DNA of 64,000 nucleotides from Raillietiella orientalis (lineage: Eukaryota), in NCBI GenBank assembly GCA_036172245.1, contig JAYWIR010000022.1, positions 2,294,001 through 2,358,000 of the forward strand, read 5' to 3'. Position numbers and translations under genes: made by a program. This document shows positions 1 to 41,399 of this stretch, in pieces. Position 1 is the stretch's first letter. The number at the start of each line of letters is the position of its first letter. Under the pieces are notes generated by a model, which saw only the letters and a program-made list of their open reading frames with translations, ran no database searches and had not been told where the DNA came from.

Positions 1-1161
1 CCCACATGTTCCCGAAGTCCACCTATGTGGAGGGAGAAATGGACGACGGTGCACTTCGTCCGCGTCTGTCTTGAGCTCCAGGCTAGGCGAGGGTGCTGTG
101 AGAAACGGGAGCTCAGGTCTCCTAGAAAGGGGGTCGAGCCGGAGGCCTGTTGGACCAATTCCTGCAGAGCTTTCTGGGAAGGAAGGGCTCCCAGCGCCTT
201 TTCCGCTTCTGCTCCTCCGAGGGAGAAAAGGTCGTCTTCCGTGACGATACTGGGCAGAACGGGAGCGACTAGCAACCCTCCGGTAAGCTGTTCCCTTCCT
301 TGAGGCGCTCCGAGTGGGCAGGAAGAACCTCCCTCATCGCAGCGCTGCCCTCCCTGAGGGAACATCTGGGCAGCAGCATCGCGGCGAAATGGGAGGTTAC
401 TGTGACCATCTCCGGAAGGGAGAAAGGACCGGGTGAGCAGAAGACGAGCAAGCTCACCGACTCTGCAACCTCCCACTAAAGTCGGCGCTGCTGCTGCTGA
501 ACTGGGGTCTCCCGTGCAACGCTTGCCGTCATCACTGGACACAGAGGGAGGGCTGTGGACCCGAACTGTTCCAGGTGCGGAGAGCAGGAATCTCTCCCTC
601 ACCTGCTTGTGGATTGAGTTGCGCTCCGTCCCCTTTGGGAGCGCCTTGCCGCGACCCTAGGAACCCCCGGCGGCAACTCCAGGGACGCTGTTAGACCCGT
701 CTTCGTACGCGATGCCCTTCGTCCGGCAGCCTCGCTAGCTGCCCTGCCTGGAGCAGATCTCGCTAGCCGCGAGATCGTCGCTACCTGAAGCGACGCAAGA
801 GGAGGGCACAATATCCACTTTGCCGTCCGATTCATGAGGATGGCAACAAGATGGCCCCATCCGGACAGCAATATCCATCAAGACCTCACCGGCATCCTAC
901 AGAGGATGCACAGGACTGCCACCAGCATACAGTGACCCCTTCCCGCACCCCCCAAAGTTTATTCATCTTTATTTTTTCTTTCTTTTTTTTTTGTTGTTTG
1001 TTTGCCCCCTTTCCTCTGCTGCCGTGGCAGGCCGCGCCGGTCTGCGAACCGGTGACGAGGCAGGCTCACACAAAAAGCGCGTGGTTGGACCGCCGCTCCA
1101 ACCACAGTCCTCATAAAATGTTTATTTTTTTATTGAAATGAACGCCCGGCGCACCCTGGTG
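1..1161 (+). mobile_element. 3' part of a degenerate L1/Tx1-type LINE (ORF2 C-terminus, 3' UTR, terminal hairpin)
   Basis: Frameshifted translation gives KWEVTVTISGREKG...LPLKSALLLLNWGL...NCSRCGEQESLPHLLVD*VALRPLWERLAATLG, a CxxC..E...H motif typical of the L1/Tx1 ORF2 C-terminus. It is colinear with ORF 30117..31115. A T-rich tract at ~958-1003 and the structured 3' UTR follow. Confidence 0.8.
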
Positions 1162-7626: not shown

Positions 7627-9878
7627 CTAATTGTCAAAAATATATGATTGATGAGTAGCCAAACCTAGTTCCTCAAGAACCCTGCAAGATATGCACTGAT
7701 CAGATTTGTGAATACAATGAATTCGGAGTCACCTCTTGCTAGTAGTGATAAAAGCAGTCGGTCCACAGACACAGACAAATGAAGAAACTATATGCTGCTC
7801 TAAAAGAGAAGACCTGACATGCCCAGTCAAACCAGCCCAAGATGAATCAGCATGGGACAGCACATGAAAAACTTGCAAACGGCTGGGCCCATGACAATAC
7901 AAATACCATTTCTTACCATGAGAACTTCTGACTCAAGGAGTCCAATTCCTGCTGCCAGATGATATCACCAGCTGTTTTATTAAAAAAGAAGAGCAGGATA
8001 GAGCATGAGTTTCTAAACAAAAACCATAAGCACTCTATCTGTCATATATTCACCTGTGAAGAGTATTGAGTAAAATGGATAATAAAGGAGTTATGCCTGT
8101 TCCTGCAGCAAGTAAAATCAACTGTCTCATGTTGCGCAGACAAGTTTCATTAAAAGGAGCTTCTGGAGAGCTGATTTTTATGGTAGATCCTGAAAGGCAG
8201 TGTATTGGGTTTAGAGGCTATTCTTACCTATGCTTAATGTTGAAAGAAAGGGACTCATTAGACCATTGGGGTATGTCTTGACTAAAAGAGAAAACTTCTG
8301 AAGCATGCTGTTTTCTTGTTTCCTTGCACAATAATAAGTGGATTCAGTCCAGAAATCAGAAATGGGAACGGGAGTATAAGGGCGAACAATGTCCACACCT
8401 ACAAGGCTGACCCATCCACATGAAATAAACCTCTTGGGACATACCTCCTATATTCGCCATGACATAGGTATGAGCTCCTGGAGATAGGTGCATACAACAG
8501 TTTTCTGGTAATGTTAAAACCAAGGACTGAGTATCATGGGTGACAGCATTTTTGGCAAGTAAACTGCATTGAATATACTGCTGACTCCAATGGTCTTTAG
8601 TAAACACTGTAGCCTCATGTTTCAAATACTCAGCTTCATTCCTCCAGAAGGTCGCAACCAGTTTTTTTGTCATCTCAATCTGCAGCTTTGCTGCTTGCCA
8701 AGTTACATAATAGGGAGATACTAGAGGCATCAGAAAAGTAACTTCCAGCTTCCAGATAGCATTCGGAAGACTAACAATAATTTGCAGCTTGTAATTATCA
8801 TGCATGATGACAAAGCAACTAGGCAGGATTGTAGACTGGGTCCAGTACCAGATAATAAAAGTCATAGTTCCTGTTTCATACCAGGTAAACTTTGGAGAAC
8901 TAATATCTTGTGCTAATGTGGAAAATAATGAAATTGCTGGTTTCTGGTTAGATACACACTTGTAGGAACTTTGAAAATCTGGAGCCTTGATGAAGGAGAA
9001 GATCCAACTAAATAGCCAACTTGACATTTCTGCAGCAATGATTCAAAGTTAACCCACTTGTGGACCTACACAAAATAAGCTCCTGAAAAAATAATCTACT
9101 GTGAATTACTTGATTGAATAGATTGGTAGCATCTGAACCAATACCACGCATTAACTCATTGGTACCTCCAGGATGAAAGTCAAAATATGCTGTTACATTG
9201 TACACTCGACCTAACAATAAACACCAATTCTTCATGATCATTCACATTCAATATTCAGATGTTTTTGAAAAAAAACAAAAACAGAAACAAATACAACAAA
9301 CTGTAAATAACTTTAGACAAATAACTTTCAGAGCTATCCAAGCATCCTCTTTGGTATTGTGTTGTTCTAGAATTTCCTTTGTAACATTCATCATTACACC
9401 ACCATTTCCAGCCAAGTCCTTCCCTGAGTTTGTAAGACGAATCCAATCCATAAGAGAAAATCCAGCTCCCAGAAAAACCTTCGTTTTTTTAGTACCTATA
9501 AAAACCATAAGGTTTCAAAGATTTTTTAATAAATCACCTGAACAATCATGTTTCAGGGTCTTTTAAATATGCAAACATGCAAAAAATTTTCAATAACGCT
9601 TTCCTCACTTTGGAACAAAATTTGGTTTGAAAGCTTTATAAGAATACCTCGAAAGGTATGTGGGCAACCTAGTGCCCATCAAGGAAAGTGGAAAAACTAA
9701 TAATCGAGCTAGCATATCTGATTTTTATGTTCATTTTATTCAACAACAAAATCGACAGCACTGTTAAATAAATAAATATGTACACAATCCTACCACTGAA
9801 GTTTTCGGAAACATTCGGTAATTCCAGTCTGACTGGGGTTGTTCTCTTTTCATCATTACCTTCCTCATCCTCATCCAT
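7627..9878 (-). CDS. CYB5R4: Cytochrome b5 reductase 4 (NCB5OR; cyt b5 + CS + FAD/NAD-binding domains), multi-exon
   Basis: Exons encode KVFLGAGFSLMDWIRLTNSGKDL (CYB5R4 N-terminal signature), GRVYNVTAYFDFHPGG (heme-binding HPGG), VHKWVNFESLL, DIVRPYTPV (FAD motif) and VCVCGPTAF (NAD motif). Stop TAG at 7629-7627. The start is tentative (ATG 9878, MDEDEEG); an upstream ATG|GTGAG micro-exon at ~10012 is possible. Confidence 0.9.
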
Positions 9879-11498
9879 ATCCTTATCAACCGCTGATGAG
9901 CAGATCTGCTCCAAGATTTTCGCTCATCAAATCTTGTTTAGAGCTGGAACAAACTGTTGGCTCTCATTTCTTAAAGAAACTTTAGTTTCCCGTGAATTTC
10001 AGCCCTCACCATCAGGTTCAGAGATTGATTAAATGTAAGAGAAAAGTATTGATTATCCGCAAAGGTCTTCAATTTCGATAAAAACGCTCGTAACCTTAAA
10101 ACATAACGATATGAAAATGCAGATAAATGGAAAAGACAGCACAGAACATCTTATCAAAGTATTTCATGAAGGATTTGTCTCAAAAAAATTCATCTTACTC
10201 CGGAGAGATATAAAGTGGGGAAAAAGGAAACATTCAATGTGATGATCTTACAAGCCAAGCCTCGGTGTAACAGAAGGCCGATTCTTTTGTTCTGTGACGA
10301 GAGTGCTTAAAAAAATAACGAATTTTCCTGCTTATATCCATGATTATATTTACTATACTGTGCTTTCATTCCTCGAGCAATAACTCAACCGTCAAGGGGA
10401 AAATCTGGGGGGATTTCATGTATCTCCCGTATTTTGCAGAAATGCATACCAGTGAACTCGGAAAAAAGCTTACTATTTCTTCAAACTTCAAAACCTCTTG
10501 GTTTTGAAAAGAATAATTTCAAAAATTTGAGGATTCAGAATCTTTGATGATGCACGGTTTCTTGAGATCTTGCAAGTTGAACAGCGATGATTTCGAAGCG
10601 TGAGCTGCAGTCTATGAAACCTTTCTAAAGCATTAAAAAAAGTGGCCTCTGCTTTTTTTCGACTGGTACTATGAGCTGTGCATGTCGAGTTTCCACGTGC
10701 AAATAATCGGCACACAAGATTCCCCCGAATCTTGCCAAGCTGTTCAGTTGTTTCACTTTGGATTGTTTTCTATTTTGCTACAAGGTTGACATTCGAAACA
10801 GCCACGATCGGAAATGCCGCTGAGAAATTATTGCTTCCACCTGAGTGCTCTTGGAGAAATACAGTTTGCTCAGTCTTCTGGGAGAAGCTATTGCATATTT
10901 GTTGGTGCCTTCCTACGTTCTGTCAGTGTGACCAGTTTTCTTGGGAAATTTGGCTTACCTATCACTATTTGCCAATTATTTTACGAGCTAATAAACAAGC
11001 ATCATTTCTTTTATTTACTTGTGAGTGGTGGTGTTGTTACAACTCCTCCCATTTATTTTTAAATGCTATTACACTCCATTAAGAGATGTTGGTGCATCAT
11101 TAGGTTTCGGCGGGATTTCAGACATTTCAATTATACAGAAGTTCATTACAATGCTTTATCTAATGCTATTTAGAATCAGTGTTCGTGACATGCAAGGATT
11201 GCTTCTGAAATAGCATTTTTTTTTCTTTAAACGCTATCATACGAAAATGAGAAAAAAGAGCGAGAAGGAAACAGAGTGTGTTCGTTTAAAGTTTTCCTAT
11301 CGAAAAGATATAGATATTCCTTCGAATGCGAAAGCTTAATTGTTCTTTAGGCTGCTTCTTTATATTTTTTCTTTAAAAGCTGTTTAGAATTCTCAAAGTT
11401 AATTTTTAAGCCGGCTCAGGAGATTTCTCTCTGGTCTCTAATCTCCATTTCTTGCTGAAGTAGCGTCTCACTCTTTGTTACAAGTTCAGACTGTATAC

Positions 11499-11565
11499 CT
11501 ACACACACACACACACATACACACACACGCACACACACATATATATATGTATATATATTAAGAGT

Positions 11566-11597
<32 letters not shown>

Positions 11598-11672
11598 ACT
11601 CTTAATATATCACTATGTATATATATATATATAGGCAAAGATATATTTGTGTGCGTGTGTGCGCGTGTGTAT
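11499..11672. repeat. Composite microsatellite (CA)n-(AT)n-(TG)n with internal inverted repeat
   Basis: (CA)n at ~11501-11538; ATATATTAAGAGTTAT and ATAACTCTTAATATAT flank an (AT)n core at ~11553-11610; (TG/CG)n at ~11648-11671. Confidence 0.95.
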
Positions 11673-12439
11673 CCACAAACAAACAGGAGCACATTAGCTC
11701 TTGTTTATGTTTTCCATTAGCGTGACTCAGAACTTTAACATATCTAAAATTTCCATGCATTTTTTGTAGAAGGATTTTCCCATCAGTATAGGAAGAATAT
11801 TTTTCTCCTTCATGAGAGAAATTTTCAACTTGGTGTTTGGAGTCCTTTTAACGAACAGCATCAGATGGGCTTCTTAATCAACTGAATTTATAGTAAAAGG
11901 ATGAATAAGATGTGTTATTTTTGAAAATTAAAGTCGAATTACAAAAATTTTATTCTGGAAATATATAGAAGCTAACATTTCAGTTCTGTGATTCCACTAG
12001 AGCGTATGGTTACAGATTATGGGTGTATAAATTGAATTGGAATTTAATTGACTACAGTTGTCAAAATGTACACGAAAACAGCATAATAGAAATCATAAAA
12101 GTTATAGATTATAGTATCATCGCTAGAAACATACTCAAGTTGATTTTAAGTAGTCATGCAAGAATACTTGAATACTCCTTAGCAATTGCATATGTCATTT
12201 ATTGCCTTTGTAAGTATTTTTGATCAGATAAACAAGGTAAAAAAACAAGAAAATTAAATATATTTGAATTTTTTCGAATAATTATGATATACTTTCAGAT
12301 GCTAAGATTTTTTTCCTGCTAAGGAATTATATGGAGTTGGAACAGTGGGCATTGAACATGAAGAAGTTGGTATGCGTGAGCATGAGAGTTAGATATCCGG
12401 AACACTGAATTCAGGAAGAGCTTGAATGCTGCCACCGAG

Positions 12440-14507
12440 ATGGTAAGTGTTTTTTTCATTTTATGCTATTAATTTTTGGCATTTTATAAAAGTGACTTTA
12501 TTTAGTGTCACATTCACTAAGGTTGATTCGTGCCTGTGATTATGTTTCATTTTGGTTGTGCTTTTGAATCTCATACGTATTACGTATTTATAAAATGAGT
12601 AAAAGTTGCAGTATTTAAATATTGATTCATTAGTTGTTTCTGCAGTTCATTACTCTCTGAAACTTTTAACAGTATTTTCGATTTCTTATCTGACTTTTGT
12701 ACATTTCTCATTTGGGGGAATCGGGTAAAAACAATAGGGTGTTGATGCTTCACAGAATTATAGATTTCTTGAGTATTGGTAAATTGTAATAGTACTGACC
12801 GGTAATTCAAGATACCTTTGTGTTTTTAAAGGGATTTTAATAATCTATTGCAGTTAACAATGTATCATCAATGAAACTTGAAAAAGCGTATCCATTTTTT
12901 AATTTCATCGCTAGTCTGTAAAGTAGTTATTAAATTTAAAAATTTAATACTTTATTTTTTCACTTGAATAAATTGCCAGCTGAATTCGGAACAAGTTTAA
13001 ACTATCACGAAAAAAATGAATTTTGTTGGAAGTATGCAAAGGAAATTGATAAGTCATCTTCCAATGAAATTGAAATCCTACTTATTTAGGGTTTATTTCA
13101 TACTTGTTTTTGTTAATTTGTTTTTTATAAATTGTTAAGAAAAAAAATGCCTACATTTGAAAGTAATCATTTTTATGCTTACATTTGAATAGAGTTCAAC
13201 TATTCAGATATAAATCTTTTAAGGTATTCAGTTTAATTAGTGCTTTGTGAACAGGAGCGTATCTATTTTTCTGGTTTTCGTATTTTTACCAGCAACCGAT
13301 AAAAAGCTTGTTTTTATGAGAATGGTAGCAGGTTCTTGAGAATTTCCTGAGTATTTGTTTTAGTTTCAAAGTGCATTGCACATTTAATCAATGGGATTAT
13401 ATTTATTGAGAAAGTTGTTGCCTCAGAGAGTGATGAAAAAAACCATAGTAAAGAATGAATATTGAATTAATTTCTAAGTATGTTTGAGTGGTGATTTTGA
13501 AAGTAACAAGAAAGACACTCCAAAATCTAGATTCTGGAATTCTAAAAGGTGGTCTTTAGATATGCATCTACTTTTGGGAAATGCAAACGTTCTTTGATAA
13601 TATTTGAGCATCATGGAACTTCAGAAAACAAGTTTTTAAAAGAATAGTAGGGGAAACTGTAGTCAATGATGTAATTAAAGTAGTATCTTCACCATGCAGG
13701 ATATGTGAGTAAAAGAATGAAGCTGTAAAAGCTCAGTTATTAGGTTCAGAGAACATCATAAGTATCAGGGAAAAACTAATAGTTGACAAATGTGAGGCAG
13801 AAGGAAAACAACAATTGAAAAAACAAGAAAACACGAGATTTTTTTGTAAAATTCAGTTTCAATTGCTGAAATGATGTTGAGTTTATGTACAGGTGTAGTA
13901 TTAAGGAAAAGTGAAAATAGCTGTAATCTTAATCATCTATAACAAACAAAATTGAACAGCTTAAAAATTAAACACATTTAAAACTTGCATAATTTGGGAA
14001 TCTGTTTGGCATGAATTGTATATACTTTTATTCAGCTGAGTAATGTTATTGGCAGAAAAAATCCAATTGTTATTTCCGAAAATTCACTCATAAATTTTTA
14101 TTAGACCAAAGGTACATCAAGTTTTGGAAAACGAAGGAATAAAACCCATACCCTTTGTAGACGTTGTGGGCGCTCATCTTATCACATTCAGAAGTCAAGA
14201 TGTGCACAATGCGGGTATCCCAAAAAGAAACTCAGACACTGTGAATATAGATTTGTGAAATCAGACAAATTTATTTTTGAAACTCAGATAACTGGAGTGT
14301 CAAAGGACAACGCAGAAAGACCACTGGAACTGGCCGTCTACGCTACCTGAAAGTAGTGCAAAGAAAATTCAGGTAATGAAATCTCTCATGGATTTTCACT
14401 ATTGTTTCTGTAGGCATGGGTTCAGAGAAGGGGGTGTTCCAGCGCCTCGAAAACGGATTGCTCCTGCAAGTGGTACAAATGCTTCATCGTCTGTACCTAC
14501 CAAATAA
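12440..14507 (+). CDS. RPL37: 60S ribosomal protein L37 (eL37)
   Basis: Exons 12440-12442 (ATG|GTAAGT), 14105-14240, 14288-14372 and 14414-14507 give [81 protein letters not shown]...PTK*, with the C2C2 zinc finger. All introns are GT-AG. Confidence 0.96.
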
Positions 14508-15299
14508 AGTTAAATAAATTATGTCTTTTATTGGAGCTAGTAATTGGTTTATAAGATTTCGTTTCAAGGCTCAAATGTTCAGCAGTTTGGTATAGTTGAG
14601 TTGGTGATGAACATTGATGTATAAGTGATCCCATGGATGGAATTCAAAATCGTACATTTTCGGATTTTCCTTTTTTTAGTGATTTACGATTATGCGGAAA
14701 TAGTTTCTGGTAAGAAAACACCAAAAACATAAGTTGCGACATGGCACTGAAGGAAGGACAAACAAAAGCAATGGTCAAGAATCAAGCGATTTGCCTCTAG
14801 TATTTACATGCCATGCCAGATCAGTAGTTTTTTGTGTCTCATAATGGAATCATGTACTGATTTATTAATACGGAATAAATTTTGCATTACTTTCTCCAGA
14901 TAATATGAGACCACGGGATTTGATTTTGGCATCACTGAGTTTGCAGTCTTTCCGGTGTTCATTTTTTTGTTTTCAAAATCTTTTTGCACTCTTGAACAAA
15001 GCTCGTCATCTTGTTGCATCACTTACCGAGTGTTTTCCCGAAGGTACCTGCATAATAGTGAACGAGTTTAGTGGTGTCTATTGCTTTTAACTATTACCCG
15101 GTTTCAAAACCATTATTTCGTCGCTGCAAATACAAGTAGCGTGAAAAAAAGTCGAATCACTGGAATTTTTTGTTCATCATTTTTATTGGTGCCGTAGCTT
15201 TTTCCCAGTAATTGTGTGTACTAAGGTTTCTTTATAGCAAGTCCATAGGCGAATTTATTTGCTGATCTAGAAGGTGCGTGGCAAGCTCAGATTTGGTCT

Positions 15300-15725
15300 C
15301 ATAATTGGATGGAAGTACCTCCAGAGCCGGTCGAGTGCCTCGCGGCGCACGTGGCTCTTTAACACTGTTCCACGCCACCCGCGGAGGGTGCTTGCTATTC
15401 TTCAAGATAGGGGGGGCGCCCCGGAAGGGGGTCCGCCCTATGAATCCAGAAAGGTTCGGAGTACGTTATTCTCACGTTTGGGCAGGGGGATCGCACCTCC
15501 CACCCTGGTTGTATCCGAAGAGGAACCCCGAAGGGAATCTCTTACTTCATTCTCTCCGGAGGGACACCCACCTAATAGGGAGGGTGGTCCTCTCCATTTC
15601 AACTTCTCCGAAGGGAACCCGGAAAGGATCCGCTAGTAGGAATTTCTTCTCCGGAGGGAACCCTCAAGGGAACCTCTCCTGTTCAATCCCCTGAAGAGAA
15701 CCCCGAAGGGACGCTTCCGAACGCA
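15300..15725 (-). mobile_element. Fragment of the repeated putative LINE 5' module (tandem hairpin repeats plus start of ORF1-like region)
   Basis: Close match to 29210-29426 (opposite orientation), 36487-36780 and 41520-41780. It is a GC-rich island in AT-rich DNA. Confidence 0.8.
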
Positions 15726-16275
15726 CGCTTAAGAGCTCTTACATTCCCAAAAAACCAAAACAAAACTAGATTGGTTTGAAATAGGCCAAGCTCGTGGGAA
15801 CGGAAATAGGGTACCGGGTTGGGGACTGGTGTGGCTAGTCTGTCCTGGTAAACGAGGATGCCTCAGTTTCGAATGTGTGGTTGCCATCATGGAGAAAACG
15901 GGTTCGTTCTTTTCACATGAGGATTTGTCTGCCAGCAGCTGCCTTTTTTTTTTTTTTTCTCGCAACTTTGCAAGAGATGCCGCTGTAAGCTCTTCGGATC
16001 GGTGGTTGAGTAACCACAAGTCTCGGAACTGGATTGTGCGTGCAATATACGTGCCCGGGTTGCATGTGGATGGAAAAAAAAGCTTTGTGATATTTCATTT
16101 CCTTCTCCCCCCCCCTCTCTTTTGTAGTAATAAAGGTACAGAAGGTATTCAAAGTGAAGCTGCTTTATGGATTATACCGTTGGCTACACTGCCGATATTC
16201 ACCCCTATTTGAGATAATTATTTTTCAGTTTTGAGAAATGCTGCAATGAAAGTTCGTTGAATGATATAAAGTTTA

Positions 16276-23123
<6,848 letters not shown>

Positions 23124-25172: not shown

Positions 25173-28031
25173 TCTGCAGTCAGCAACAAAAAAATTCGTC
25201 CTCGTAGAAGTCAAGCTCTTCAGGATTTTGGAACCGGAACAAGATGGGGAACGAGGAGCTCATCTTGTTGGGATGACATTCGTATGGCGAAAAGCACCAT
25301 TTGGGGTCCAATTTCTGCGACAAAGGAGATCAGGTCAAGTTTAAAGTGTGCCTGCAACACAGCCTCCGTGGTTCGCGGACACCTGATTATGTGCGTTCCA
25401 GTCTTCCGTTCTTTTGCTGCACGGGGGTCGCAAAACCTGCCGGTCTGCATGAGATCCGTGTGAGTAGATCTCTGTGTGAGATCTTCATGAGATCTGCATG
25501 TTTGTTTATCTTTCCTCTCTCTCTCTCTACCCTTTTCGCAAAGCGGAGAAACATCTGCGTCCCGAAAAATGCAGCGTCTTTTAAAGCAGTTCTCTCTTAG
25601 AGCTCACCGGATCGAGTGGCAGTTTTCCGCAGCGTCCGAAGGTAGCGAGCTACTGGGTGGGCCGTTGTAGGGAGCTCGCCTCCCTTCCGCCAGCCTCCTT
25701 CCACAAGATCGGCTCCTGTTTCCGTAAAGGAATTGCAGGAAGAGTACAGTGGCTGCTTTGCTTCGTCCGCCTTCATCGCCGTGGTCGCTCTCGTGGAGAG
25801 CAGCGTTGCGGGTTCTGCATTCGTTCATCCAGACTCGTCCTCAAAAAGTCGTGCTTTGTTGGGGGTCCTGACCCAGGGATACTGCTGGTTTCAACCAAGA
25901 AAGCGATTTCGGGGATTTGTTGGTTTGCCTCTTCGGCTCTCCGGATCTCATCTCTTTGTCTCTTGAATCGTGGTCAGGTTTTGGTCCACAGAAACTTGCC
26001 ATCGTCTTTCTTCCCCTTCGCGAAACCGCCAGCATTCCGCTCTGATGAACTGCTGTTAAAATTTCATTTTATATTTTTAATAAATGAAATTAAGATGTGA
26101 TTTTAAAAAAAATATTGTAATAACATACTGTAAAAGAAAGAATAAGAATTGTAATTGTATATATTGTAAAAGAATTTTGTTGCTAATGGTGTTTCATGGT
26201 ATTCAGTTGCAGTCGGTGTCCGCATACTGTGGAAAGTCAGTCCCTCAGGGGGTCTTGGATAAATGCTGATTTGGCGGTGTAGCGTCTGTTCAACTGCTTC
26301 GAAAAGAATGCCGATCCACGATTAAGGCAGACTGAATTTGTTTCACTGTTTCCAGGTAATGAACTATTCTTCCAAGTAACCATGGCGACAGCTCGCTGCG
26401 GATTTCAGTTGAAGAACCGGAACCATCTCCAAAGCTAGAAACACATTCTACGAAAAGCGGCCCTTCGACAGAGGTGCTCTTTGCTCCATTTCAGAGAAAA
26501 TGGCAGGGCCGTATTGGCACTACATTCAAAGCGGGAAGTGACAGCAAGAAAGATCCCTGACAGCTGGAGCCTTCGTGGATGAAAGATGGTGCACTCTTCA
26601 ACGGCGAGAACGGTAGCGCTCAAACCATGGAATGGTTGAAATGGAGCGAAAATCAACATGACAACAAAAGCCGTTTTCAACTTCCAGTTTATGAACCTTA
26701 TCGTATTACCCACGTGTGACCCATAGGACTCTTGTGGCCAAGAAACTCATTGCCCGCTTTATGCGGGAGTCTACCCATCTGACCCTCCTCGAAAATCCTC
26801 ATCAACAGATGTTAGGTAACGTGAATTTTTTTCAAATTAATCCTCGTTCAAGTAAGTGTGCTTATGCTGAAGCTCGCGTGACGTCTAATACTTATCACAA
26901 TATCTGTGAGCGAGCAGGGGTAATTTATTAGAAGTTTCATTGTATCAGGTAAGCTATGAACTATAGTCTGCCTATCGAGGGGATAGTTTGATTTATGAAT
27001 TGATGGTGCAGGGAATGGAAGGACGGAGCCAGCAGCAACTCTTCCAGGTCGTTATTATTACATTAACATTACTGAACAGCAAAAGTCGATTTACTCATAT
27101 CAAGAAATACTTCTTTGTGATCTGTTGATTTCCACCGGAAGTAGTCGCGAAGATGGTGACGCCGATCCAATCCCATCTCTCGCCACAAACAGCGTGTACA
27201 GGAAAAGGCTGGGTCGTGCCTGGTCTCTGGGATGAAGCAGTCCCTTCGACGTGCAAGAGTACCGCCAGATGGGCAAACCGAGCATTCGCGATTCACCCTG
27301 CAACGTCCGCTTCGCAAGGGGGAAGCCTGGAGAAAGAGCCGCGGGCCTCAGAACGAACCGGGAAGCCACAGTTCCGGAGGGGGGGGGCTGCGGCCACCGT
27401 GTCGGATTGCCGGCAAGATGGAGCAGCCACACGTAAAGAGGCGTGGACTCTGTGTGCTTTGATGTCCCCGGCTGCGAAGGAGCCGGCAAGGTACGCAGCG
27501 CCCCGAGGGGCCTCTCGTTTCAGTTGTTGCGAGCGGTCCGTGGTTGCAAGACCCAATCGGGAGAAGGGGTTTGCAGCTTCTTCCTCTATCTCATGCCTTG
27601 TCGTTCTGGCCAGAAGAAAAACCAAAAAAAAAAAAAAAAACGGGAAATGGGAAAGCAACGTTCTATGGGATTCGGGATGGAGGATTTGTCCCGGAGATCC
27701 CAGGGGAGGGGATACTCACCTGGCTTCGTGTCCACTGCAATCAGGACGGTGGTGGAGCCAGAGTGAGGCTTGATCCTTATGCTCAGATTCCGTTGACCTC
27801 TGCGATAACCCCAGAAGTGGGTCACTCGGAAGCATAATTTTTACGCAGCAAGGCTGAAGTTCGCGCGGACTCTTGCACCAACTGGAGAGGACAGACGGTG
27901 TCCTGTGGACCCCACCCGTGAACAGTGTTCCTTCCACCCTGTCCAAGTGTCCCAGTCGCTGACCGCAATGGGGGAGGAGAGCTCCCAGGCCGAAGTGCCC
28001 CTCTGAGGGAACCGACACACCCAACGGAGGT

Positions 28032-28923: not shown

Positions 28924-31362
28924 GCCGGAGGCCCCCGATGAAAGCCGGAACAATGGAAGTCGACCTTCGGGTCCTCCCAGGAATCAAGGAGTCCCTCCTG
29001 TAGTGCAACGGAGAGAGGATCCCCCACCGGGGGACCCCTCCGGTTTCAAGATGGAGCAGGAGCCCTCATGGGCACATCTCCAGTTGTTCAAAGGAGCGAA
29101 CCCTCCCCGTTGCGCGGGGGACCCTCCGAGTCGCTGCCTCTTCACCGAGTGCACAAGGAAGCAAGCGAGAGCGATTCCCTGAGGGAAGCTGCAGCGCCCC
29201 TTCTGAGTTTCGGAAGCGTCCCTTCGGGGTTCTCTTCAAAGGAGTGAACAGGAGCGGTTCCCTTGCGGGTTCCCTCCGGAGAAGAAATTCCTACAAGCGG
29301 ATCCTTTCCGGGTTCCCTTCGGAGAAGTTGAAATGGAGGGGACCACCCCCCTCCCAGGGGGTGTCCCTCCGAAGAGAATGAGGAAGGAGATTCCCTTCGA
29401 GGTTCCCCTTCGGAGACAACCAGGGTAAAAAAAAAAAAAAAAAGCGTGGGTGCTGGAGGTGCGCGGCTTGGCTCGTGGCACTGCAGGGGCGCCTTCGCTG
29501 TCTGCAGTGCAGGAAAAGGAGAAGAAAGAGGAGCACCTCGATGCAGTTGCTGACCTGGACTTCACGGAAGCTCAAAAGGAAAGCCCAAGACAAAATGAAG
29601 GGAGAACTTGCTCCTCGACAGAAGAGGCGCTCCCGAGGAGGAGAGGCAGCGAGCAGCAGAGCATGAACAGGAAGTGGCCATGTTCGCGGAAGTAGTCCGT
29701 CCGGACAATACGGAGGAAGAACGGAATGGGGTTCTTCTGCTCCGCATCTCCGCACTCCAGGGCGAGGTTCCAAACACGATGGGTGGGCGAGAAGATGCTC
29801 ATGCAAGAAGAAGGCGCTGTGCACGTGGCAAAAGCCAAAGTCGTCGAGCTGGATCAACAGGTCTTGCAGCCCGCAAGGAAAACAACGAAGCTTGCCCGTC
29901 TTGCACAGAAGAAAGGAAATCCAGACGAAAACACCAGCGACTGCATCGAGCCCGAGAGCGACCTGGGAGAGAGACCATCTGCCGAGAGAAGGCAGACGGC
30001 GTCTCCTAAACAGAAGGAAAAGAAGAAAAGCAAAAAATCTCACGTAAAACACCGATGGATTCCTCCCTGTCGTCAGCCAGGAGCCTGAAGATCGCTTCCT
30101 GAAACATCAACGGCATGTGGAGCCAGGAGAACCTATTAGAGCACGCCTCCTGGCCCAACGAGCCTGCGGATTTTCGTCGTTTCTGTCGGCGCGCGACCGC
30201 AGACAAACACACTGCGGCTTTCAGCTGCGACGCATGGCCGTTGTGGTTAGGGAGAACTCCTGGATCTCCTGCCTCCCCGGGAACTACTCTGCATGGCTGC
30301 ACGAGTCAGTCTCCACGTGGGAAAAGATCCACGTTCCGGCGGGCGCAAAGAACACTTGCCTGAAAAGGCAAGCCCGCTGGACGCTGCAGGAGATCATGCA
30401 GTTCCACGATAAGCTTCTGTGGGCTCTCATTACCCCCCTTGCCCCAGTGCTGCCCTTCCTTGAGAACTCCAGGGACAGCAGCGAGCAGGGGAAATGGAAA
30501 GTGTCCTGCACCATGGACGGCAGGACACAAGTGATAAAGGCGTGGACATCTCGGCAGCTAGCGGATGATGCGACGCCGAGTGTCCCGCCCAATGGCATTC
30601 GACGCTGGGGCGAGCTACTCGGACTATCTCCGGAGGAGATGAAGTGGCCTCCAGCGTCCTGGAGCAGTGGCTCCCTCCCCTTGAAATGGCAGGAGGTGGC
30701 GTTGCTTGTTTTACATTGGGGTTTATACTTTTCAAAGCACGCCTCTCACTGCACACGAGGGGTTGTGGATTCCCAGTGCGATCGGTGCGGGGAAAAGGAG
30801 ACATTCCCTCACCTTCTTGTTGACTTCAGGGCCCTCCGCCCTCTATGGAATCGTCTTGCGGCGGTTCTTGACATTCGTGGCTCCCCAAAGGACATTTTCA
30901 GGCACCTCTTCTCTCGTGACGCCTTGTCTCCGCACGCTTGTGTAGCAGTTCTCTGTTGCATTCGAGGGATCGTGGCGGCTTGGAACGAGACCAGAAGACG
31001 TCAGAACAGCAGGAATGCCTTACACTGGACTCGCCTTTTCGTGCGAAACATCTCCAGGTGGCGCCACTTGGGTGCAGCAAGGACGCAGCTTGTTAGGATC
31101 CTGAAAAGGATCTAGAGGACCGCTCCGCGCGCACTGTGATCCCTTCCCCGCCCTCCCATCCCCAAAACATTAGTGCCCTCTCCACGTTTGAACTTTTTCT
31201 TTCTTTGTTTTTTATCCCAACCCCCGCGCATCGGAAGGACCTCGCCAGTCGAACACCAGCAAGCAGCAGGCTGTCTTGATGCGGTGAGCCTTTGGGTTCA
31301 CTACGCGAAACTTTTCTGTACTTTTATTTGAAAAAAAATAAATGCCCCGGCATATCCGGGTG
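28755..31362 (+). mobile_element. Internally deleted L1/Tx1-type element: tRNA-like head, 5' module, ORF1-like remnant, ORF2 start fused to ORF2 C-terminus, 3' UTR
   Basis: ATG at 30055 gives MDSSLSSARSLKIAS*NINGM (APE N-terminal xSWNxNG motif, TGG>TGA). ORF 30117..31115 then has LPLKWQEVALLVLHWGL...QCDRCGEKETFPHLLVD...RWRHLG. No RT motifs lie between them. The structured 3' end is at 31240-31362. Confidence 0.75.
28759..28842 (+). ncRNA. Degenerate tRNA-like sequence (A/B-box-like) heading the repeated module; not a functional tRNA
   Basis: GCGTCGG-AG-GCC-TTGTGGTTAA-GGC resembles a D arm/A box; GTTCGAAT at 28811-28818 resembles a T loop/B box; CTGACGC at 28834-28840 can pair with the first 7 nt. 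Confidence 0.55.
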
Positions 31363-31379
31363 TAAACGAGAAGGGGAAA

Positions 31380-31790
31380 AGGAAGTGACGACCTCGTGAG
31401 TGTCTGCAGGAAACCAATGAGTTGAGACATGAGCCAATGAGCCAGACATGCCTCGAACTCGAGCGATGACTGGACGCCCAGCTCGTCATAAACCCGGATT
31501 AGAATAAGACGAAGATGGCGATCCTCGTGAAGAATGACATCGCACACAACCGTCCTGGAGTCCTTTTCCCTGTGGCCTGACCACATAGTCGGTCTTCAGA
31601 TGTCTTGGTCCGGAAACCTTTATCTGTTCCTGATGAACGTGTACGGATCGCATCGATGCGTGGAAGCCGTCGGAAGACTCTTCTGCACAGCAAAGCCGCG
31701 CCAAAAGACATCATCATGGTCGTGGGAGACCCGAACACCGTGGGACACACGGACCAGCAGAGTTCACGTAGGGGAAGGGCGTATCGATAG
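31380..31790 (+). mobile_element. Decayed APE endonuclease domain of LINE ORF2
   Basis: Ordered motifs across frameshifts: LQET (~31403), MAILVKN, LFLMNVYG, IIMVVGDPNT (GDFN-like). Confidence 0.7.
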
Positions 31791-31829
31791 CTGTCCGAAG
31801 AATTCGGTCCGCTATGGCAAGCAGTTAGC

Positions 31830-32120
31830 CACAAGCCTACCGACCATCTCTTGCACGACGGGGACATGGACCCTCGAACGCTTTCCTCACTTCGTCCGTG
31901 GGAATGTCATCTTCGAGCCGTTTTTGCTGCTGGATGGATCGTTGTTTTTGCAGGAATCGCAAAAAATACTTCCTGCTTTTCTGTCGATAAATCTTGACGT
32001 CGGCAGTGGGAGGTGTAGCGATGTTGGATTGCCTCTGCAATCTCTCCCGACGTGTGTCGCATCCGATCTTCGTACTGGATGCAGATGTCTGTTGTCAGGC
32101 TCTTCTTCTCCAGCACACCT
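31830..32120 (-). mobile_element. LINE ORF2 linker remnant between endonuclease and RT
   Basis: QKSRKYFLR and IPTDEVRKA resemble the EKxTKYF and ITxEEVxxA motifs of L1-clade ORF2. Confidence 0.4.
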
Positions 32121-32379
32121 ACTTCTCCTTGAACCTATCGCAAAACGTGCCGTCTCTCCTAATGATCGCAGTACCTCGAGAGGGAGTAGTCTTAAGGGTT
32201 AACCCTTACTCCTGGTACGCTTCCGGCCTCAACTTCTTGTCACTGCATTGCACGTTGCAAAACAGGTGGATGGAATGCTTCATCCGGTCCCAGTCGTCGA
32301 TATTGTGTTGTCCGTCAGAATCGCCTCGATGGTGGCAGGGAAGCGTTGCGAACCATTCGGGCATGCAGATGAGCGCTGC

Positions 32380-33376
32380 CCTGGAGCATGTCCTCATCCG
32401 AGATGGTGTGCAACCCACACAAGATGCTGTGGGCTTCGTTTATCCCCCTTGCCCCGGGGCTGTCCTCCCTGAGGGAAGCAAGGGACAGCAAGGTGGGAGA
32501 TATCCTGCTGCATTTCAGGAAGAAAGAAACTTTTGGATGTGTGACAACTCGGGAACTGACAGACGGTGTGACTGCACAATGACTCAATGATTTCCTCATT
32601 GTCTTCTACACTGGGGCGAGCTGCTCTCTATCCTTCCGGAGGTGGCTAATGAAGTGGCTCCCAGCGTGCTGGAACAGTGGCACCCTCCCCCTGAAGTGGC
32701 AGGAGTCGGTGACCCTGCTGTTGCACTGGGGTCTCCTGTACAACGCCCACCTACACCATTGGACCCGGGGGAGGAGGTGAGCCCGAACTGTAGCAGGTGC
32801 AACGAGAGGGAGTCTCTCCCGCACCTGCTCGTGGATTGTGTAGCCCTTTACTCCCTGAGGGAGACGCTTTGCGGCTCCCTGCAGATCCCTAAGGGCATAC
32901 CAGAGACCTTCTGAAGCGTCTCTTCATGCGCGACGCCCTCACTCCGGCAGCAACACAGTGCTGCCTACGCGGCGGGATCGTGGCTGCATGGAGCAGCAAC
33001 GCCAGAGAAGACCAGAACGACAGGGACAAATCCATTTTGCCGTCCTCTTCATGGGGATGGAGTCAAGATGGCCCCATCTGGGAGTCTTAAAACAGGAACT
33101 TGTCAACATCCTTACAAAGATGAGGAGGACATCCTCTAGCACACGGTGATACTTTCCCGAATCCTACATTTTTTTTACCATGTTTTTTTGTTTTCTTTTT
33201 TTCTTTTTGTTTGTCTCCCCTTTCCCTGTGTTGCCGAGGTGAACCCAGCTGGCCTGCGTGCCAGTTCCTGGCAGGTTCCTTTTCGTAGTTATAAGTAACG
33301 TGGCAGGATCAAACGTCCTGCCACAGACGTCTATGTTTGTTTTATAAATAACACTCCCGGCGTGACCGGGGGTGAA
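32380..33376 (+). mobile_element. 5'-truncated L1/Tx1-type LINE copy with complete 3' module
   Basis: HKMLWASFIPLAP...WGELL...PNCSRCNERESLPHLLVDCVAL...RWPHLG, followed by the T tract, pseudoknot (33248-33275), hairpin (33300-33324) and terminal hairpin (33352-33374). Confidence 0.85.
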
Positions 33377-33419
33377 ACCACAAAAGGTGTATTTTAAGTA
33401 AACGCCCCGGCGAACCCAA

Positions 33420-33550
33420 TTTCTGTGGTTGGACCATTTGTTCAGCCACGTCCTTTCTGTAGATACCCTGCCGTATTACCGGTTCGCAGACCGATGAGGT
33501 CCACCATGGCAGCAGAGGGGAGAGGCCAAACAAAAAGAAAAATAAACAAA
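33420..33550 (-). mobile_element. Solo 3' UTR of the same LINE family, tail-to-tail with the previous copy
   Basis: Reverse complement CCTCTGCTGCCATGGTGGACCTCATCGGTCTGCGAACCGGTAATACGGCAGG...GTCCAACCACAG aligns with 1010-1107. Confidence 0.85.
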
Positions 33551-33729
33551 ATAACTCAGAGCTCTAGGGATCAGGATGCAGCGTGAACAAACTGGTGTTT
33601 TCTTTTGATCCGTAAGGAAAGTAAACACCGATTCTCTGGAAACAACATGTCATAACCAGTTGTGATTCCCATTTCTACTTCGTCGAATTCCGGGAGCTCT
33701 GTTATGACCCTGTCGTGAATTCATAAATC

Positions 33730-34430
33730 AAAAATAAAACAATTTTGGAGTGTTACGGGAAGGATCACAGCCTGCTGGGGATGGTCCCCTGCATCCTTTG
33801 GAAGATGCCGACAAGGTCTTGTTTCATGGAGATGTGCAGGTGGGGCCATCTGACCACTATCCGTAAAAAGCGAAGAGTGAAGTGGATGGCGTCCCTGTCG
33901 TTGGTTTCTCGGCTGGCGTCGCACCACGCCGTCACGATCCCATGAAGTCAGCAAAGTGCTTCAAGCGCACTGCGGCTGGCTGCAGGACTTCGCGCACAAA
34001 GAGGAGCCGCATCACGTCTGGCGTTGCCACTGGGGTTTCCAAAGGTCGCGGCAAAGTGTCTCCAAAGGGGTTGGAGGGCAGAACGGTCCACTAGGAGGAA
34101 GGGGCGTGGGAGGGATTCCCGCTCCCTGCACCTGGTACAGATGGGGTCCATGCCCCCCCCTCAACGTGTACAGTGATGTCGGCGGGAGTTGCACGGGAGG
34201 CCCCAGTGCAGCAGCATCAGTGTCGACTCCTCCATTTCAAGTGTTCATGAGCACCAAAGGGGGGGCACTTCATCCGGAATATCCAGTATCTCGCCTCAGC
34301 GCAAAAGTGCTCGAGGTGGGACACTCGGGGTCCCAGCGTTGGTGAGCTGGCCTATCGTCCACTCGCCCAGTCCTTTTCTCCTGGAAAAGATCACACTAAC
34401 CTCCCATCTAGCTGCAAAGCTACTGGAAGA
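33730..34430 (-). mobile_element. LINE ORF2 C-terminal fragment
   Basis: RWEVSVIFSRRKGLGEWTIGQLT...DPICTRCRERESLP...LQPLWRHFAATFG, colinear with the other copies. Confidence 0.8.
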
Positions 34431-34504
34431 AGTTGATATAGGTTTGCATTGAGGAATCCCATGCAAAGTGCATCTTCATTACCGGAACCGGAGGAGTGCG
34501 GATG

Positions 34505-35016
34505 CGGAGTGAGTGATCCCAGAGACATTTTTAAACGCCTCTTCGTGCGTGCCACACTGCCGCCAGCCGAGTCCCTTGAAGCTATTTGCTGCATTCGCGG
34601 CATCATGAAGGTCAGGAAAGCAGCACGAAGAGATCGGGATGGAAGGGACACCATCCAATGGTCGGGAATCTTCCTGAGGACTGCCTTGATGAGATGGCCC
34701 CATCTGGGCAACATCCAGAACACACTTACCAGCATCCTGGACAGGATGAAGAGGACTCATCGCAGAGAAACAGCGATCCTTTCTTCAATCCCAGTTCCTA
34801 CCCAAGAAAAACTTTCCTGTCTCTTTTTTTGCTTGTGCATTTCTGTTTTTTTCCCCTCCCTTCTCCTTTGCTATCGAAGTGGACCTCGCCAGTCTGCGTG
34901 CCGGTATCTGGCAGGTGGAATGTGCTTTTGTAATGCGTGATAGAACCAAGAGTTCTACCACAAAATGAAAGTTTATTATTTTATATAACAAATGTCCCGC
35001 CAGATCCCGGACATTT
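34505..35016 (+). mobile_element. 5'-truncated LINE copy with 3' module
   Basis: RDIFKRLFVRATL...ICCIRGI...IQWSGIFLRTALMRWPHLGNIQ, followed by 3' UTR structures at 34888-34961 and 34990-35016. Confidence 0.85.
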
Positions 35017-35089
35017 ATTGTATGTCTTACCCGTGCTGACGCTTAGAATCCAGAAAGCACGGAAGCGACCAAAATCCTTTTACGGATGC

Positions 35090-35950
35090 AGGATGCGACT
35101 GCCTTCCAAAGGAGCCTACCTGTTGAAGGTCATTCAATGGAGGCCAATCTCCATCCTGAACACGGACGCCACGTGGCTAGCAAAGATCCGGACCAACCGC
35201 TTGAGTACAAGGTTGCAGTCGACGATCTCTCCAGCTCAGACGTGCGCTGTGCCTGGATGCCGCATCTCTGGCAATGTGAGGTGCGCCCAAGCAACCACAG
35301 GCTGCAACGAGTACTCTAGACGAGGACCTGGTGCTAGGCATCGCAGATATGGACCACGCTACTACGATATTGCGGAATTATTTAGCAAGTACATCACAAT
35401 GACATTAGAAGGAACACTACAAGATCTCGACCAATGGTCGAGACGCAGACTCAATTCGTATGGAAAGGAGAATCCTCCAAGGAGAAACCCTCGGTGCGAT
35501 GCTGCTCACCTACGTGGAGGCTGTGTCGTCCCTGAGTGACAAAGGTGGCTTCAAGGAATTATCATCCACGACAACTGACTCACTCACCTGGCTTATGAGG
35601 ACGACCTGCTTTTCTTCCTGAGGGACAAAAGGGATCAGCTTGCGTTCCTGCGTATAGTCGAGTCTATGGAGAAAGGACTGGGCTTGAAGTCGCAACTCTT
35701 TCCCATAGGGATTCTGGAACCTCAACGTTAACGGAGAAGGGATTCCGAGTGGTGTACGAAATTAAGCATCTGGGAATCCACATCGCGACTCTTCGGCATC
35801 GCAGATTCTATGGAGGGAAATCCTGGGTAAAGCAAGAGAGGAAGCCACAAAGTAAGTCGGAATTGGCTTCATGTGAATCAGAGGGACCAACTTGTGGAAA
35901 GGCGTGATCCTTCCCAAGATGCTCCTCGGTGCGGCCTTCTGCCGAATGGA
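35090..35950 (+). mobile_element. Decayed L1/Tx1-type reverse transcriptase domain
   Basis: QWRPISILNTDATWLAKIRTNRL...ISPAQTCAVPG (RT motifs 1-2), HLAYEDDLLFFL (YADD motif, ~35586-35620) and EIKHLGIHI (motif 7, ~35758-35785), broken by stops and deletions. Confidence 0.85.
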
Positions 35951-38759: not shown

Positions 38760-39697
38760 GCCGAATGGGATCCTATCACCATAGATAGTCCGCAAGATGG
38801 GTAGCATCCTGTGAGATTACGAGAGAAAAGCAGCCGGGATGCTGGACGGCGCGTCAACTAGCTGACGCCTGTACCTCTGCTGCCCTCTCCAAAGGAATTC
38901 ATCACTGGGCCGAACTCCTGGACATCCCTCCTGAAGAGGCAGAAATTCTCCGGTGTTTGTGGACAGCTCCATGCTCCCCCTGAAGTGGCAGGACTCGGCA
39001 CTGCAGTTGCTGCACTGGGCGATCCCATGCAACGCGCGAGTCTACCAGTGGGCGAGGGGGAATGCGGCCCCAGACCGTGTCAGGTGTGGGGAACTGAAAA
39101 CCTTCCCGCATCTGTTGCTGGATTGTGCTGCCCTCCCGAGCGTCCAGGAACGCTTCGCTGCGGCTCTCCCACTCCCGGTAGGCAACGGCGGAGAGGTCTT
39201 GCGGCGCCTCTTAGCGCGAGACCCGGCGTCGTCCGCAGATTGCCTTGCAGCTCTGCACTGCAGGCAATCGTGGAATTGTGGCAGCGAGAAGCCACACCAA
39301 AAGTGGCCAGTCGAATAATGAGGTCATCGCAGCTGTCTGCTCCTCCGTGAGAAATGTGACAAGATGGACGCATTTCTGCCAACAAAAGGAGGAAATTGCC
39401 AACATCCTCCTGAGGATGCTGAGGACACCAGGAAGAAATCTGCGATCCCTTCTCTCTCTCCCTCTCCCACTTCCCCAACATTTTTTAAAACTGAACTTTT
39501 GTGTTTTTTTTCCTCCCTTTTTGTTTACCCCTTCCCCCACTTCCTCTCATCAGGGAGCTGTTCACGATAAGCAGCAGCGCCTCCGAGGCAGCATCTCCCT
39601 TCGCAGTGGTGATGTGAAACCAATACGAAGACGGACATTTTTATATTTTATATGACCATTTTTTCTTACAATGAACGACCCAGCGTGACCGGGTGAA
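38760..39697 (+). mobile_element. 5'-truncated LINE copy
   Basis: WTARQLAD...LPLKWQDSALQLLHWAIPCN...RCGELKTFPHLLLDC...RWTHF. The terminal motif ACCCAGCGTGACCGGGTG is at 39678-39695. Confidence 0.85.
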
Positions 39698-40464
39698 ATA
39701 ATGGGGTGCCATCCTTGTGGTGAACCAGTAGGAAATGCCCTTTTCTTCATCTCGGGTGGAACCAGAAGGCGCGATCGTTTTCGCCGCAATGAGGTCACTC
39801 AGGACCTCTTTTCTGATGGCCAGGGGGATCCTTGCACAAAACAGGTAGGGTGCTCTTGGGCTGCGGCTTCCGCGGCTCCCTTGAACCCACCAGGAATCCG
39901 GAGCAGGTCCTCCTGGGTGTGGATCTGCGGACGCGAAAGGAATCCGGTTTTCAAGGGGTGATCCAGCCGTTCGGCTTCCTGATCACCAGTGAGGCATGGG
40001 GCGCGCTCAAAGGACCGCATGCGGCCGACGTCCATCTTCGGGAGAAGGCTTCGTGAACAAGTCGAGGGTTTCGGGTCCCGCTTTACCAGATTGGATCCTT
40101 TCAGCGGTCTCTTGGCCTTCTGGTCTGGGGTGTTGATCACGTCGCTTCGTTGCAAGTGACCTTCAAGAGTGACCTCGGTCTTCTGGTCTTTAAGTGACCT
40201 TGAAGAGAGTTTTCCTTACGAATGACGAAGGAGGTGTTCAGCATCCTCTCGGTCTGCCTGGCTCTTCCGTAACGGACTGCAGCCCACGAGAGGCTGCTTG
40301 TTTAAGGTAGTTGACCCACCTAGTACTTGCAGTGGACACCTCAAGAGTTAGGGATGCTGCAACACACCCACCCACGTCTCTTTCTCTGCTGGTGTGCCAC
40401 TTGCCGGATCTTCAAACTTTTCCGGTGTCCCACTGTTCCCTGGATCCCAGGGTCCTACGCCAAG

Positions 40465-40950
40465 TGCCCTCCGGCCCCTATGGGAGCGTTTCGGAACGAC
40501 CCTCCGGATCCCAGCTGGCACCTCTAGGGACATTTCAGGGCTCCTCTTTGTGTGGGATGCTCTGCAGCCAGCCTCAGCGTCAGCAGCGCTCTGTTGCATC
40601 CGCGGGATTGCTGCGGCCTGGAGCGAAGCCGACGGAAGAGGAAGAAACGGGAGGGACGCCGGTCCAGCTCGCAGTTCGTTTCCTGCGGATAGTGGTCAGA
40701 TGGTCCCACCTGGGACCTATCCGGCATCCTGAAAAGGACGCAGAATCCCTCCGGATGACTGTGATCCCCTCCTAACCTTCCAGAGTGTTCCTATTTATTT
40801 TTATTTATTTTTTATTTTTGTTTTCTCCCATTCCCCTCCGAGGTAAGCCCGCCGGCAGGTCCATTGTAGAATTGGCTGTGATGGAGCCTCGCACCCCACC
40901 CCCACGATAGTTTGTTCGAATCGATAAACGCCCTGGCGTCACCGGGTGGC
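40465..40950 (+). mobile_element. 5'-truncated LINE copy
   Basis: SALRPLWERFGTTLRIP...ALCCIRGIAAAWSEA...RWSHLG, a T tract, a partly deleted 3' UTR, and the terminal motif AACGCCCTGGCGTCACCGGGTG at 40927-40948. Confidence 0.8.
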
Positions 40951-41399
40951 AATGCGAAGTGCCGTCGCCTAGGCTGGGACCCCCTTGAGCGGGAAGCGGA
41001 GCGCAACAGGCTCTTCTTTCATTGCCCTTTTCCCCGTAGGGCCGTAAGGGTGGCGACGTCCAGCACGACAACCCTCTCCACGCTTTGCATCCCGAAATAT
41101 GGGCGAAACAGGGAGTTGACCCCGGATATCGGCCGATGACGGACCACTGGCCTTCGCTGCCGATTGGAGCTTTCTCGATCACGTGCTGACATCTCTCCTC
41201 GCCTGGTCGAACCTTCCCGCTTCGGGCTGGGCCATCGTGGCCGCGCGCGAGCGACCTTTCCCGTGCGGCGCATCTGCGCGCCGAGTTCCCTGCCGCTCCT
41301 GGCCAGAGAGACCGGGCCCGGAGTCCCTGGAGCGCGCCTGCTCTCGCATCAAATCCTCCCCTCCCCTCCCCTCTCCCTCCCCAGTGAGGTGCCCGAAGG

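Follow-up and report, generated by a model that had tools for sequence, protein, structure and literature searches.

A conserved 3′ tail with selected RNA helices in a probable L1/Tx1-type LINE family of Raillietiella orientalis

A stretch of 64,000 nucleotides from the genome of Raillietiella orientalis (GenBank assembly GCA_036172245.1, contig JAYWIR010000022.1, positions 2,294,001 to 2,358,000 of the forward strand; hereafter the window) carries eight copies of one repeat family, a long interspersed nuclear element (LINE) whose copies begin at differing points on the 5′ side and share a common 3′ end. Ragged 5′ ends together with a shared 3′ end give the usual picture of 5′-truncated LINE insertions. 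The subject of this paper is the tail that follows the stop codon in these copies. It contains helices and a short motif that are better conserved than the sequence around them, and it is probably a signal by which the protein encoded by the second open reading frame (ORF2) recognises its own RNA.

The repeat family and its placement

Copies were found by blastn of positions 1–1200 against the window and by tblastn with the longest open reading frame (ORF) of the family, that of copy c2. The sample thus consists of eight diverged copies (c1–c8; Table 1), all from this one window, and every statistic given below is calculated on five to eight related sequences. Copy c1 is truncated by the start of the window. 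A preliminary description, made from the letters of the window, had assigned the structured module to a LINE's 3′ untranslated region (UTR), and this assignment holds: the module lies at the common 3′ end of the eight copies, downstream of an ORF that contains a C-x2-C-x7-H-x4-C knuckle. All the coordinates and letters it quoted are in place, and a sixth hairpin 2, which it had not listed, lies at 33425–33449 on the minus strand. The knuckle is found in c3, c6 and c8, and the ORF stops about 130 codons past it.

The knuckle region gives no score at E ≤ 0.01 with the Pfam family PF13966. Among the Atlas look-alikes of the window ORF, 28 of 30 clusters are zf-RVT, at a weak level of recognition that is below the tool's own mark, and none of the 208 window ORFs of at least 110 amino acids (aa) contains a reverse transcriptase (RT) domain. 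The window does not include the 5′ portions of the element. An HMMER scan of representative proteins returned only two outside relatives of the ORF. The first, P0001, has 87 aa and shares 48% identity with the ORF's end. The second, P0002, has 619 aa, carries the RVT_1 domain and is 45% identical to the window ORF over 67 aa (E = 5e-6). P0002 matches human L1 ORF2p at 1e-39 to 7e-40 and R2 proteins at 7e-17 or weaker, and its relatives carry APE (PF03372), RVT_1 and zf-RVT domains. Because P0002 prefers L1 ORF2p over R2 and because its relatives have this set of domains, the best available placement of the element is as a putative L1/Tx1-type LINE, in agreement with the type first suggested for it. 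P0001 and P0002 are each recorded on one 2870-bp JGI contig, which is presumably the same contig for both.

Attempts to extend the family beyond the window returned little else. No longer relative of the c2 ORF came up in a search for one, and P0001 used as a query against metagenome contigs gave no locus. A degenerate DNA pattern for stem 1, GGCAGG and hairpin 2 gave 11 loci, all of them chance matches on GC-rich, bacterial-looking contigs without the pyrimidine tract or the hairpins. A separate fragment of 169 nt at 44040–44208 on the minus strand is 87% identical to positions 302–470 of c1, which makes this the closest pair in the window; no tail is attached to it.

Table 1. Positions of the tail elements of copy c1 and of the other LINE copies, in window coordinates
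Feature	Position	Strand	Details
c1 coding remnant	3–935	+	ORF2 C-terminal region, frame 3, internal stops, stop codon 933–935; from translation and tblastn to c2 ORF and P0001
c1 pyrimidine tract	956–1023	+	T-rich then C-rich; from sequence and alignment
c1 block U	1024–1035	+	Partner strand in the rival folds ALT-A and ALT-B
c1 stem 1	1036–1053	+	Arms 1036–1041 / 1048–1053; loop CTGCGA 1042–1047
c1 GGCAGG motif (K)	1059–1064	+	Contains GCAG, the proposed pseudoknot partner; GCAGG at 1060–1064
c1 hairpin 2	1081–1105	+	9 bp (1081–1089 / 1097–1105), 7-nt loop
c1 hexamer AATGAA (AAUAAA-like)	1137–1142	+	Directly 5′ of hairpin 3; from alignment
c1 hairpin 3 core	1145–1159	+	CCCGG / loop / CCTGG, one mismatch
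c2	30048–31370	+	355-codon open ORF tail 30048–31112; hairpin 2 31283–31302; hairpin 3 31346–31360
c3	32207–33385	+	Stem 1 to GGCAGG 33248–33275; hairpin 2 33300–33324; hairpin 3 (9 bp) 33352–33374
c4	33423–34436	−	Stem 1 to GGCAGG 33467–33495; hairpin 2 33425–33449 (two mismatches); no hairpin 3
c5	34512–35020	+	Stem 1 to GGCAGG 34888–34915; hairpin 2 34937–34961; shifted hairpin 3 34990–35016
c6 (distant lineage)	38792–39700	+	Stem 1 39557–39575, loop CACGATA; GGCAGC 39587–39592; hairpin in the place of hairpin 2 39599–39630 (unalignable); hairpin 3 39678–39694
c7	40466–40955	+	Stem 1 region deleted; GGCAGG 40854–40859; weak hairpin 40874–40888; hairpin 3 40932–40946
c8	44700–45301	−	Stem 1 to GGCAGG 44805–44838; hairpin 2 44763–44787 (11 bp); hairpin 3 region decayed

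Layout and conservation of the tail

From the stop codon onwards the tail consists of a spacer of about 20–45 nt, a pyrimidine tract that is first T-rich and then C-rich, a 12-nt block (block U), stem 1 (6 bp with a 6-nt loop), a linker of 4–10 nt, the motif GGCAGG, an A-rich linker of 16–24 nt, hairpin 2, an AU-rich stretch of 25–45 nt that ends in an AAUAAA-like hexamer, hairpin 3, and GTG with a few A-rich letters. The pyrimidine tract is present in all eight tails; its T-rich part measures 29–48 nt and often ends in TTTTGTTTG, after which the C-rich part begins. A tract of the same make-up, T-rich and then C-rich, lies at 61186–61290 on the plus strand, with 81% identity over 57 nt to the LINE tract and with no hairpins or ORF attached.

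The blocks of the tail were aligned separately because a whole-tail MAFFT alignment put GGCAGG wrongly in c3 and c5. GGCAGG is invariant in five copies and has at most one mismatch in any of the eight. The preliminary description passed over this invariance, and likewise over the hexamer and hairpin 3. Additional occurrences of GGCAGG, which may be due to chance, are seen at 1027–1032 in block U of c1 and at 33302–33307 within c3's hairpin 2, on its 5′ arm.

Conservation is uneven along the element. Mean pairwise identity among c1, c3, c4, c5 and c8 is 0.61 in the coding part, 0.57 from the stop codon to the end of the pyrimidine tract, 0.71 over block U and stem 1, and 1.00 in GGCAGG; further downstream it is 0.46 in the linker after GGCAGG, 0.68 in hairpin 2 and 0.47 after hairpin 2. 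The conserved motif and the helices exceed both the linkers and the coding part in identity, which is the pattern expected of a stringent-type tail. Such a distribution of identity between blocks indicates that the differences arose under selection in diverging active lineages, and not from decay after insertion alone.

The hexamer adjoins hairpin 3 on its 5′ side, about 25 nt before the end of the element, in all eight aligned tails. It is an exact AATAAA in two copies and one letter off in the other six. The core of hairpin 3 is CCCGG / 5-nt loop / CCGGG; its outer four pairs are each kept in 6 of the 8 tails and the middle pair in 4 (57.7% of cells pair), and the stem is extended only in c3 and c5, with flipped pairs. 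Hairpin 3 is a conserved motif with hairpin potential.

The copies stop at a defined sequence, without poly(A). The end of the element lies at most about 10 nt past hairpin 3 in c1, and no run of more than four A follows hairpin 3 in c1, c2, c3, c5, c6 or c7, the exact terminus not being fixed; beyond it the flanks are unrelated. Copies c6 (39705–39715) and c7 (40958–40968) have a GTGCCNTC-like stretch in common about 10 nt past hairpin 3, which could be a part of the element in the lineage of these two copies or a preferred target. A shared insertion target 3′ of the element was considered for the family and rejected, c6 and c7 being the only copies alike there.

Copies c3 (+) and c4 (−) abut tail to tail over 33385–33425. 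Between them lies a plus-strand fragment of 29 nt (33392–33420) from the AU-rich stretch and the 5′ half of hairpin 3, a part that is missing from c4. It could be a tiny insertion of the tail only, or c4 could have had its own tail inverted locally.

Hairpin 2 and stem 1

Folded alone, hairpin 2 is the minimum-energy structure in every copy. Against shuffles it has z-scores of −2.7 to −6.2 in six of the eight copies (c1, c2, c3, c5, c6 and c8), and it is weak in c4 and c7. In the six copies that can be aligned over the 10 pairs, 88.1% of 59 cells pair, compared with 25–44% in slid controls, where the partner arm is shifted by 1–3 columns; a gap that MAFFT introduces into the 3′ arm of c2, whose own fold is 7 + 3 bp, costs this copy three cells. 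Three of the 10 pairs are changed on both sides (U-A/C-G, U-A/A-U and G-C/A-U), and the compensatory double substitutions that had been claimed for this hairpin are thereby borne out. When columns are shuffled 500 times as a null, the covariation score is matched in 12 shuffles and the count of double-changed pairs in 75. The minimum-energy folds of whole tails agree on hairpin 2 only, plus hairpin 3 in some copies. Hairpin 2 is an RNA helix that has been kept by selection in active lineages.

The claim that stem 1 keeps one fold in different letters stands in part. In the five copies for which it was made, 28 of 30 cells pair, with mismatches in c5 (A × C) and c8 (C × C); the change of letters is narrower than was supposed, both double changes falling within c3. 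In c2 the CTGC loop is lacking and stem 1 is not intact, with two central mismatches. The distant copy c6 has a 6-bp hairpin with a different loop at the place of stem 1. With c6 included, 34 of 36 cells pair (94.4%), three of six pairs are double-changed, slid controls give 17–64%, and the score is reached by 4 of 500 shuffles. That selection has kept stem 1 as an RNA helix is moderately supported, less firmly than for hairpin 2.

Wobble pairs indicate the strand on which these helices are formed. Hairpin 2 has G-U pairs in 4 of its 52 paired cells and stem 1 in 6 of its 34; since each would be a mismatch on the opposite strand, the fold belongs to the sense RNA.

Other features of the window

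A canonical gene for U1 small nuclear RNA (snRNA; RF00003, 74.1 bits), at 27712–27875 on the plus strand, precedes the cluster of LINE tails by about 2 kb. The gene for the succinate dehydrogenase flavoprotein (SDHA) is represented by two exons in different frames at 22072–22919 (+), the second of them about 70% identical to animal SDHA. A gene for an Unkempt-like CCCH zinc-finger protein is found at 62167–63163 (+), with matches to PF25427, PF23035 and PF23261; Unkempt being an animal family, this gene points to an animal as the probable host. In base composition, a long AT-rich stretch at 8001–20000 (GC 0.29–0.43) lies between GC-rich blocks, in which GC reaches 0.71 at 54–56 kb.

A probable signal for template recognition

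The 3′ tail seems best explained as a conserved, structured signal of the stringent type in an L1/Tx1 LINE family, recognised by the family's own ORF2 protein. We regard this as probable, the function in template recognition being suggested by analogy with stringent LINEs and with R2. In stringent LINEs the ORF2 protein binds a stem-loop in the tail of its own RNA (PMC4176376), compensated tail hairpins are known from L1-clade lineages of monocots and of a green alga (PMC3472496), and the R2 protein needs two stem-loops and flanking single strands for binding and for positioning of the template (PMC11194090).

By the same analogy, the ORF2 protein would bind the GGCAGG motif of its own tail along with hairpins 2 and 3, and this binding would bring the 3′ end of the RNA into the active site of the RT for target-primed reverse transcription (TPRT). 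A stringent tag of this kind would explain why copies have a fixed end instead of poly(A). The hexamer, from its position before that end, probably sets the 3′ end of the transcript. Several diverged lineages of the LINE family are present as 5′-truncated copies.

A number of observations weigh against this interpretation. Three covariance models (hairpin 2, hairpin 3, and stem 1/GGCAGG), run with filters off, found no short interspersed nuclear element (SINE) with the same tail in the 64 kb; they match only the known LINE copies and the short fragment at 33392–33420 (+). The core of hairpin 3 has no covariation, and the hairpin is lost in c4 and c8. The region of stem 1 folds differently from copy to copy, with z-scores of −1.6 to +1.1 that are no better than shuffles, and RNAalifold favours a rival helix over stem 1. 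The shuffle counts of 12/500 for hairpin 2 and 4/500 for stem 1 are within reach of related sequences without structure, and c6 entered the stem 1 alignment only after its hairpin had been noticed, which favours the result. As to the element itself, the placement in a clade leans on one outside contig, and no target-site duplications of at least 9 nt are found for seven copies, whose 5′ limits are uncertain and which are nested.

Alternative readings

The tail could instead serve the RNA's own life. The hexamer and hairpin 3 would define the 3′ end, whilst the hairpins and the pyrimidine tract would protect an end that is non-adenylated or short-tailed, or would direct export or translation. 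The constant place of the hexamer in all eight aligned tails is what such a function would lead one to expect, and the long pyrimidine tract, which all copies have, is without a role in the recognition model. However, just two of the eight hexamers are canonical, and copies without poly(A) would still require an RT with a set internal starting point, and this is itself stringent behaviour. We consider this reading unlikely.

It is more doubtful that the functional core of the signal is an H-type pseudoknot, formed by pairing of the CTGC loop of stem 1 with the downstream GCAG. The preliminary description had seen this geometry in five copies, and in these five of the eight a complement of CTGC is indeed found 5–11 nt downstream; the pseudoknot that was read into it has no covariation and is absent in c2 and c6. 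CTGC and GCAG are invariant in the five copies, where loop positions 5–6 and the linker vary, no motif of the tail is better conserved than GGCAGG, and pseudoknot-like elements have been reported in R2 tails (PMC13586686). Yet none of the four pairs varies in the five copies, and covariation is therefore silent either way. A 4-nt Watson–Crick complement of the loop occurs within the next 25 nt in 7–33% of shuffles and, the copies being homologous, the occurrence of CTGC with GCAG in five of them counts as one event. Copies outside the five also speak against the pairing: c6 has stem 1, but with the loop CACGATA and with GGCAGC there is no complement, c2 lacks CTGC, and the complementarity is absent from c7 as well. 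As GGCAGG-like motifs are found in all eight copies despite the loss of CTGC, the loop is not the reason for the conservation of GGCAGG. The geometry is also unfavourable by our reasoning, with zero nucleotides between the 5′ arm of stem 1 and the CTGC helix, and the 4-bp CTGC/GCAG duplex is worth just −3.5 kcal/mol.

The same segments have other partners. In ALT-B, the consensus of RNAalifold, CTGC and the last three bases of the 5′ arm of stem 1 pair with block U, forming 7 bp; 88.6% of the cells pair and none of the pairs is double-changed. In ALT-A, the upstream ACCU of block U pairs with the AGG of GGCAGG plus one nucleotide (ACCU/AGGU), nested around stem 1; here 80% of the cells pair and one pair is double-changed. 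A pseudoknot in this tail is possible but unsupported.

These competing pairs could in principle be alternative states of one domain, in which stem 1 and GGCAGG would act as a two-state switch. CTGC would pair either upstream, or downstream with GCAG so as to close the pseudoknot, and binding of ORF2p or formation of the 3′ end would select the pseudoknot and so license reverse transcription. Such a switch is improbable and is offered as speculation; if true, it would give an L1/Tx1-type LINE of an animal-like host a template tag that is under regulation.

It is very unlikely that the hairpins are palindromes due to chance, or neutral passengers of the repeat, that have not been selected. The sample is small and its members are related, GC-rich DNA folds readily, and the stem 1 region does no better than shuffles, all of which such an origin would accommodate. 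What it would not provide is the double-sided change that preserves pairing in hairpin 2 and stem 1, where slid controls fall to 17–64%, nor the fact that divergence is much greater in the linkers than in the helices and GGCAGG. The self-cleavage that the preliminary description had raised, or the presence of any other catalogued structured RNA, has nothing but the existence of structure in its favour and is almost certainly wrong, since the copies run intact through the module and the scan of Rfam (release 15) that the description had proposed yields only the U1 gene elsewhere in the window at the gathering threshold and nothing at E ≤ 1 over 880–1200 and 31100–35100.

Three further candidates were rejected. 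The pyrimidine tract followed by CAG|G is not a 3′ splice site, as purines precede CAG and the tract ends at least 45 nt upstream. An antisense SINE with an A-rich tail is at odds with a module that is attached to the ORF in every case, and in a single orientation, and with wobbles that agree with the sense strand. An ENE-like poly(A) clamp was set aside informally, the T tract not being an internal loop between stems.

Comparison with known tails

The eel element UnaL2 is an L2-clade LINE with a stringent-type tail. The tails of the L2 clade, here represented by zebrafish ZfL2-1 and ZfL2-2, resemble the present one in having a stem-loop near the 3′ end and a defined end without poly(A), and their ORF2 proteins bind the cognate stem and loop (PMC4176376). 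In contrast, the element described here is L1/Tx1-like and has at least two to three helices over about 130 nt together with an invariant GGCAGG that looks single-stranded. Terminal short repeats are not seen in it, and binding by its ORF2 protein is suggested by analogy.

The monocot LINE1-1_ZM group and the green-alga element L1-1_CR belong to the L1 superfamily and have a conserved 3′ end with a compensated hairpin. In these elements the conserved part is the last 45–50 nt with one hairpin and is shared with SINEs (PMC3472496), whereas the present tail has no SINE partner in the 64 kb and belongs to a probable animal host. The 3′ UTR of R2 is similar in being a multi-helix structure with phylogenetic covariation, of which two stem-loops and flanking single strands are needed for binding and TPRT (PMC11194090). 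R2 differs in its restriction-like endonuclease and its site-specificity for ribosomal DNA, and P0002 matches R2 far more weakly than it does L1 ORF2p. Human L1 is of the relaxed type and ends in poly(A), unlike this element, which is without a poly(A) tail. For human L1 and Alu, a conserved stem-loop before the 3′ end has reportedly been proposed as a signal for RT.

Implications

The kind of signal considered here is already known from L2, from R2 and from some L1 lineages; this element adds a member, and no new kind of mechanism is opened by it. A full-text literature search on LINE tail structures gave no description of this element, which is unnamed, so its absence from print is not claimed. 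The natural variants of hairpin 2 and stem 1 are ready-made compensatory mutants for tests of binding and of TPRT. If the signal is confirmed, the family would be another L1/Tx1 lineage among the few L1-type elements that have a structured tail in place of poly(A). It would thereby bear on the idea (PMC3472496) that the ancestral state in L1 was stringent recognition, which was later relaxed.

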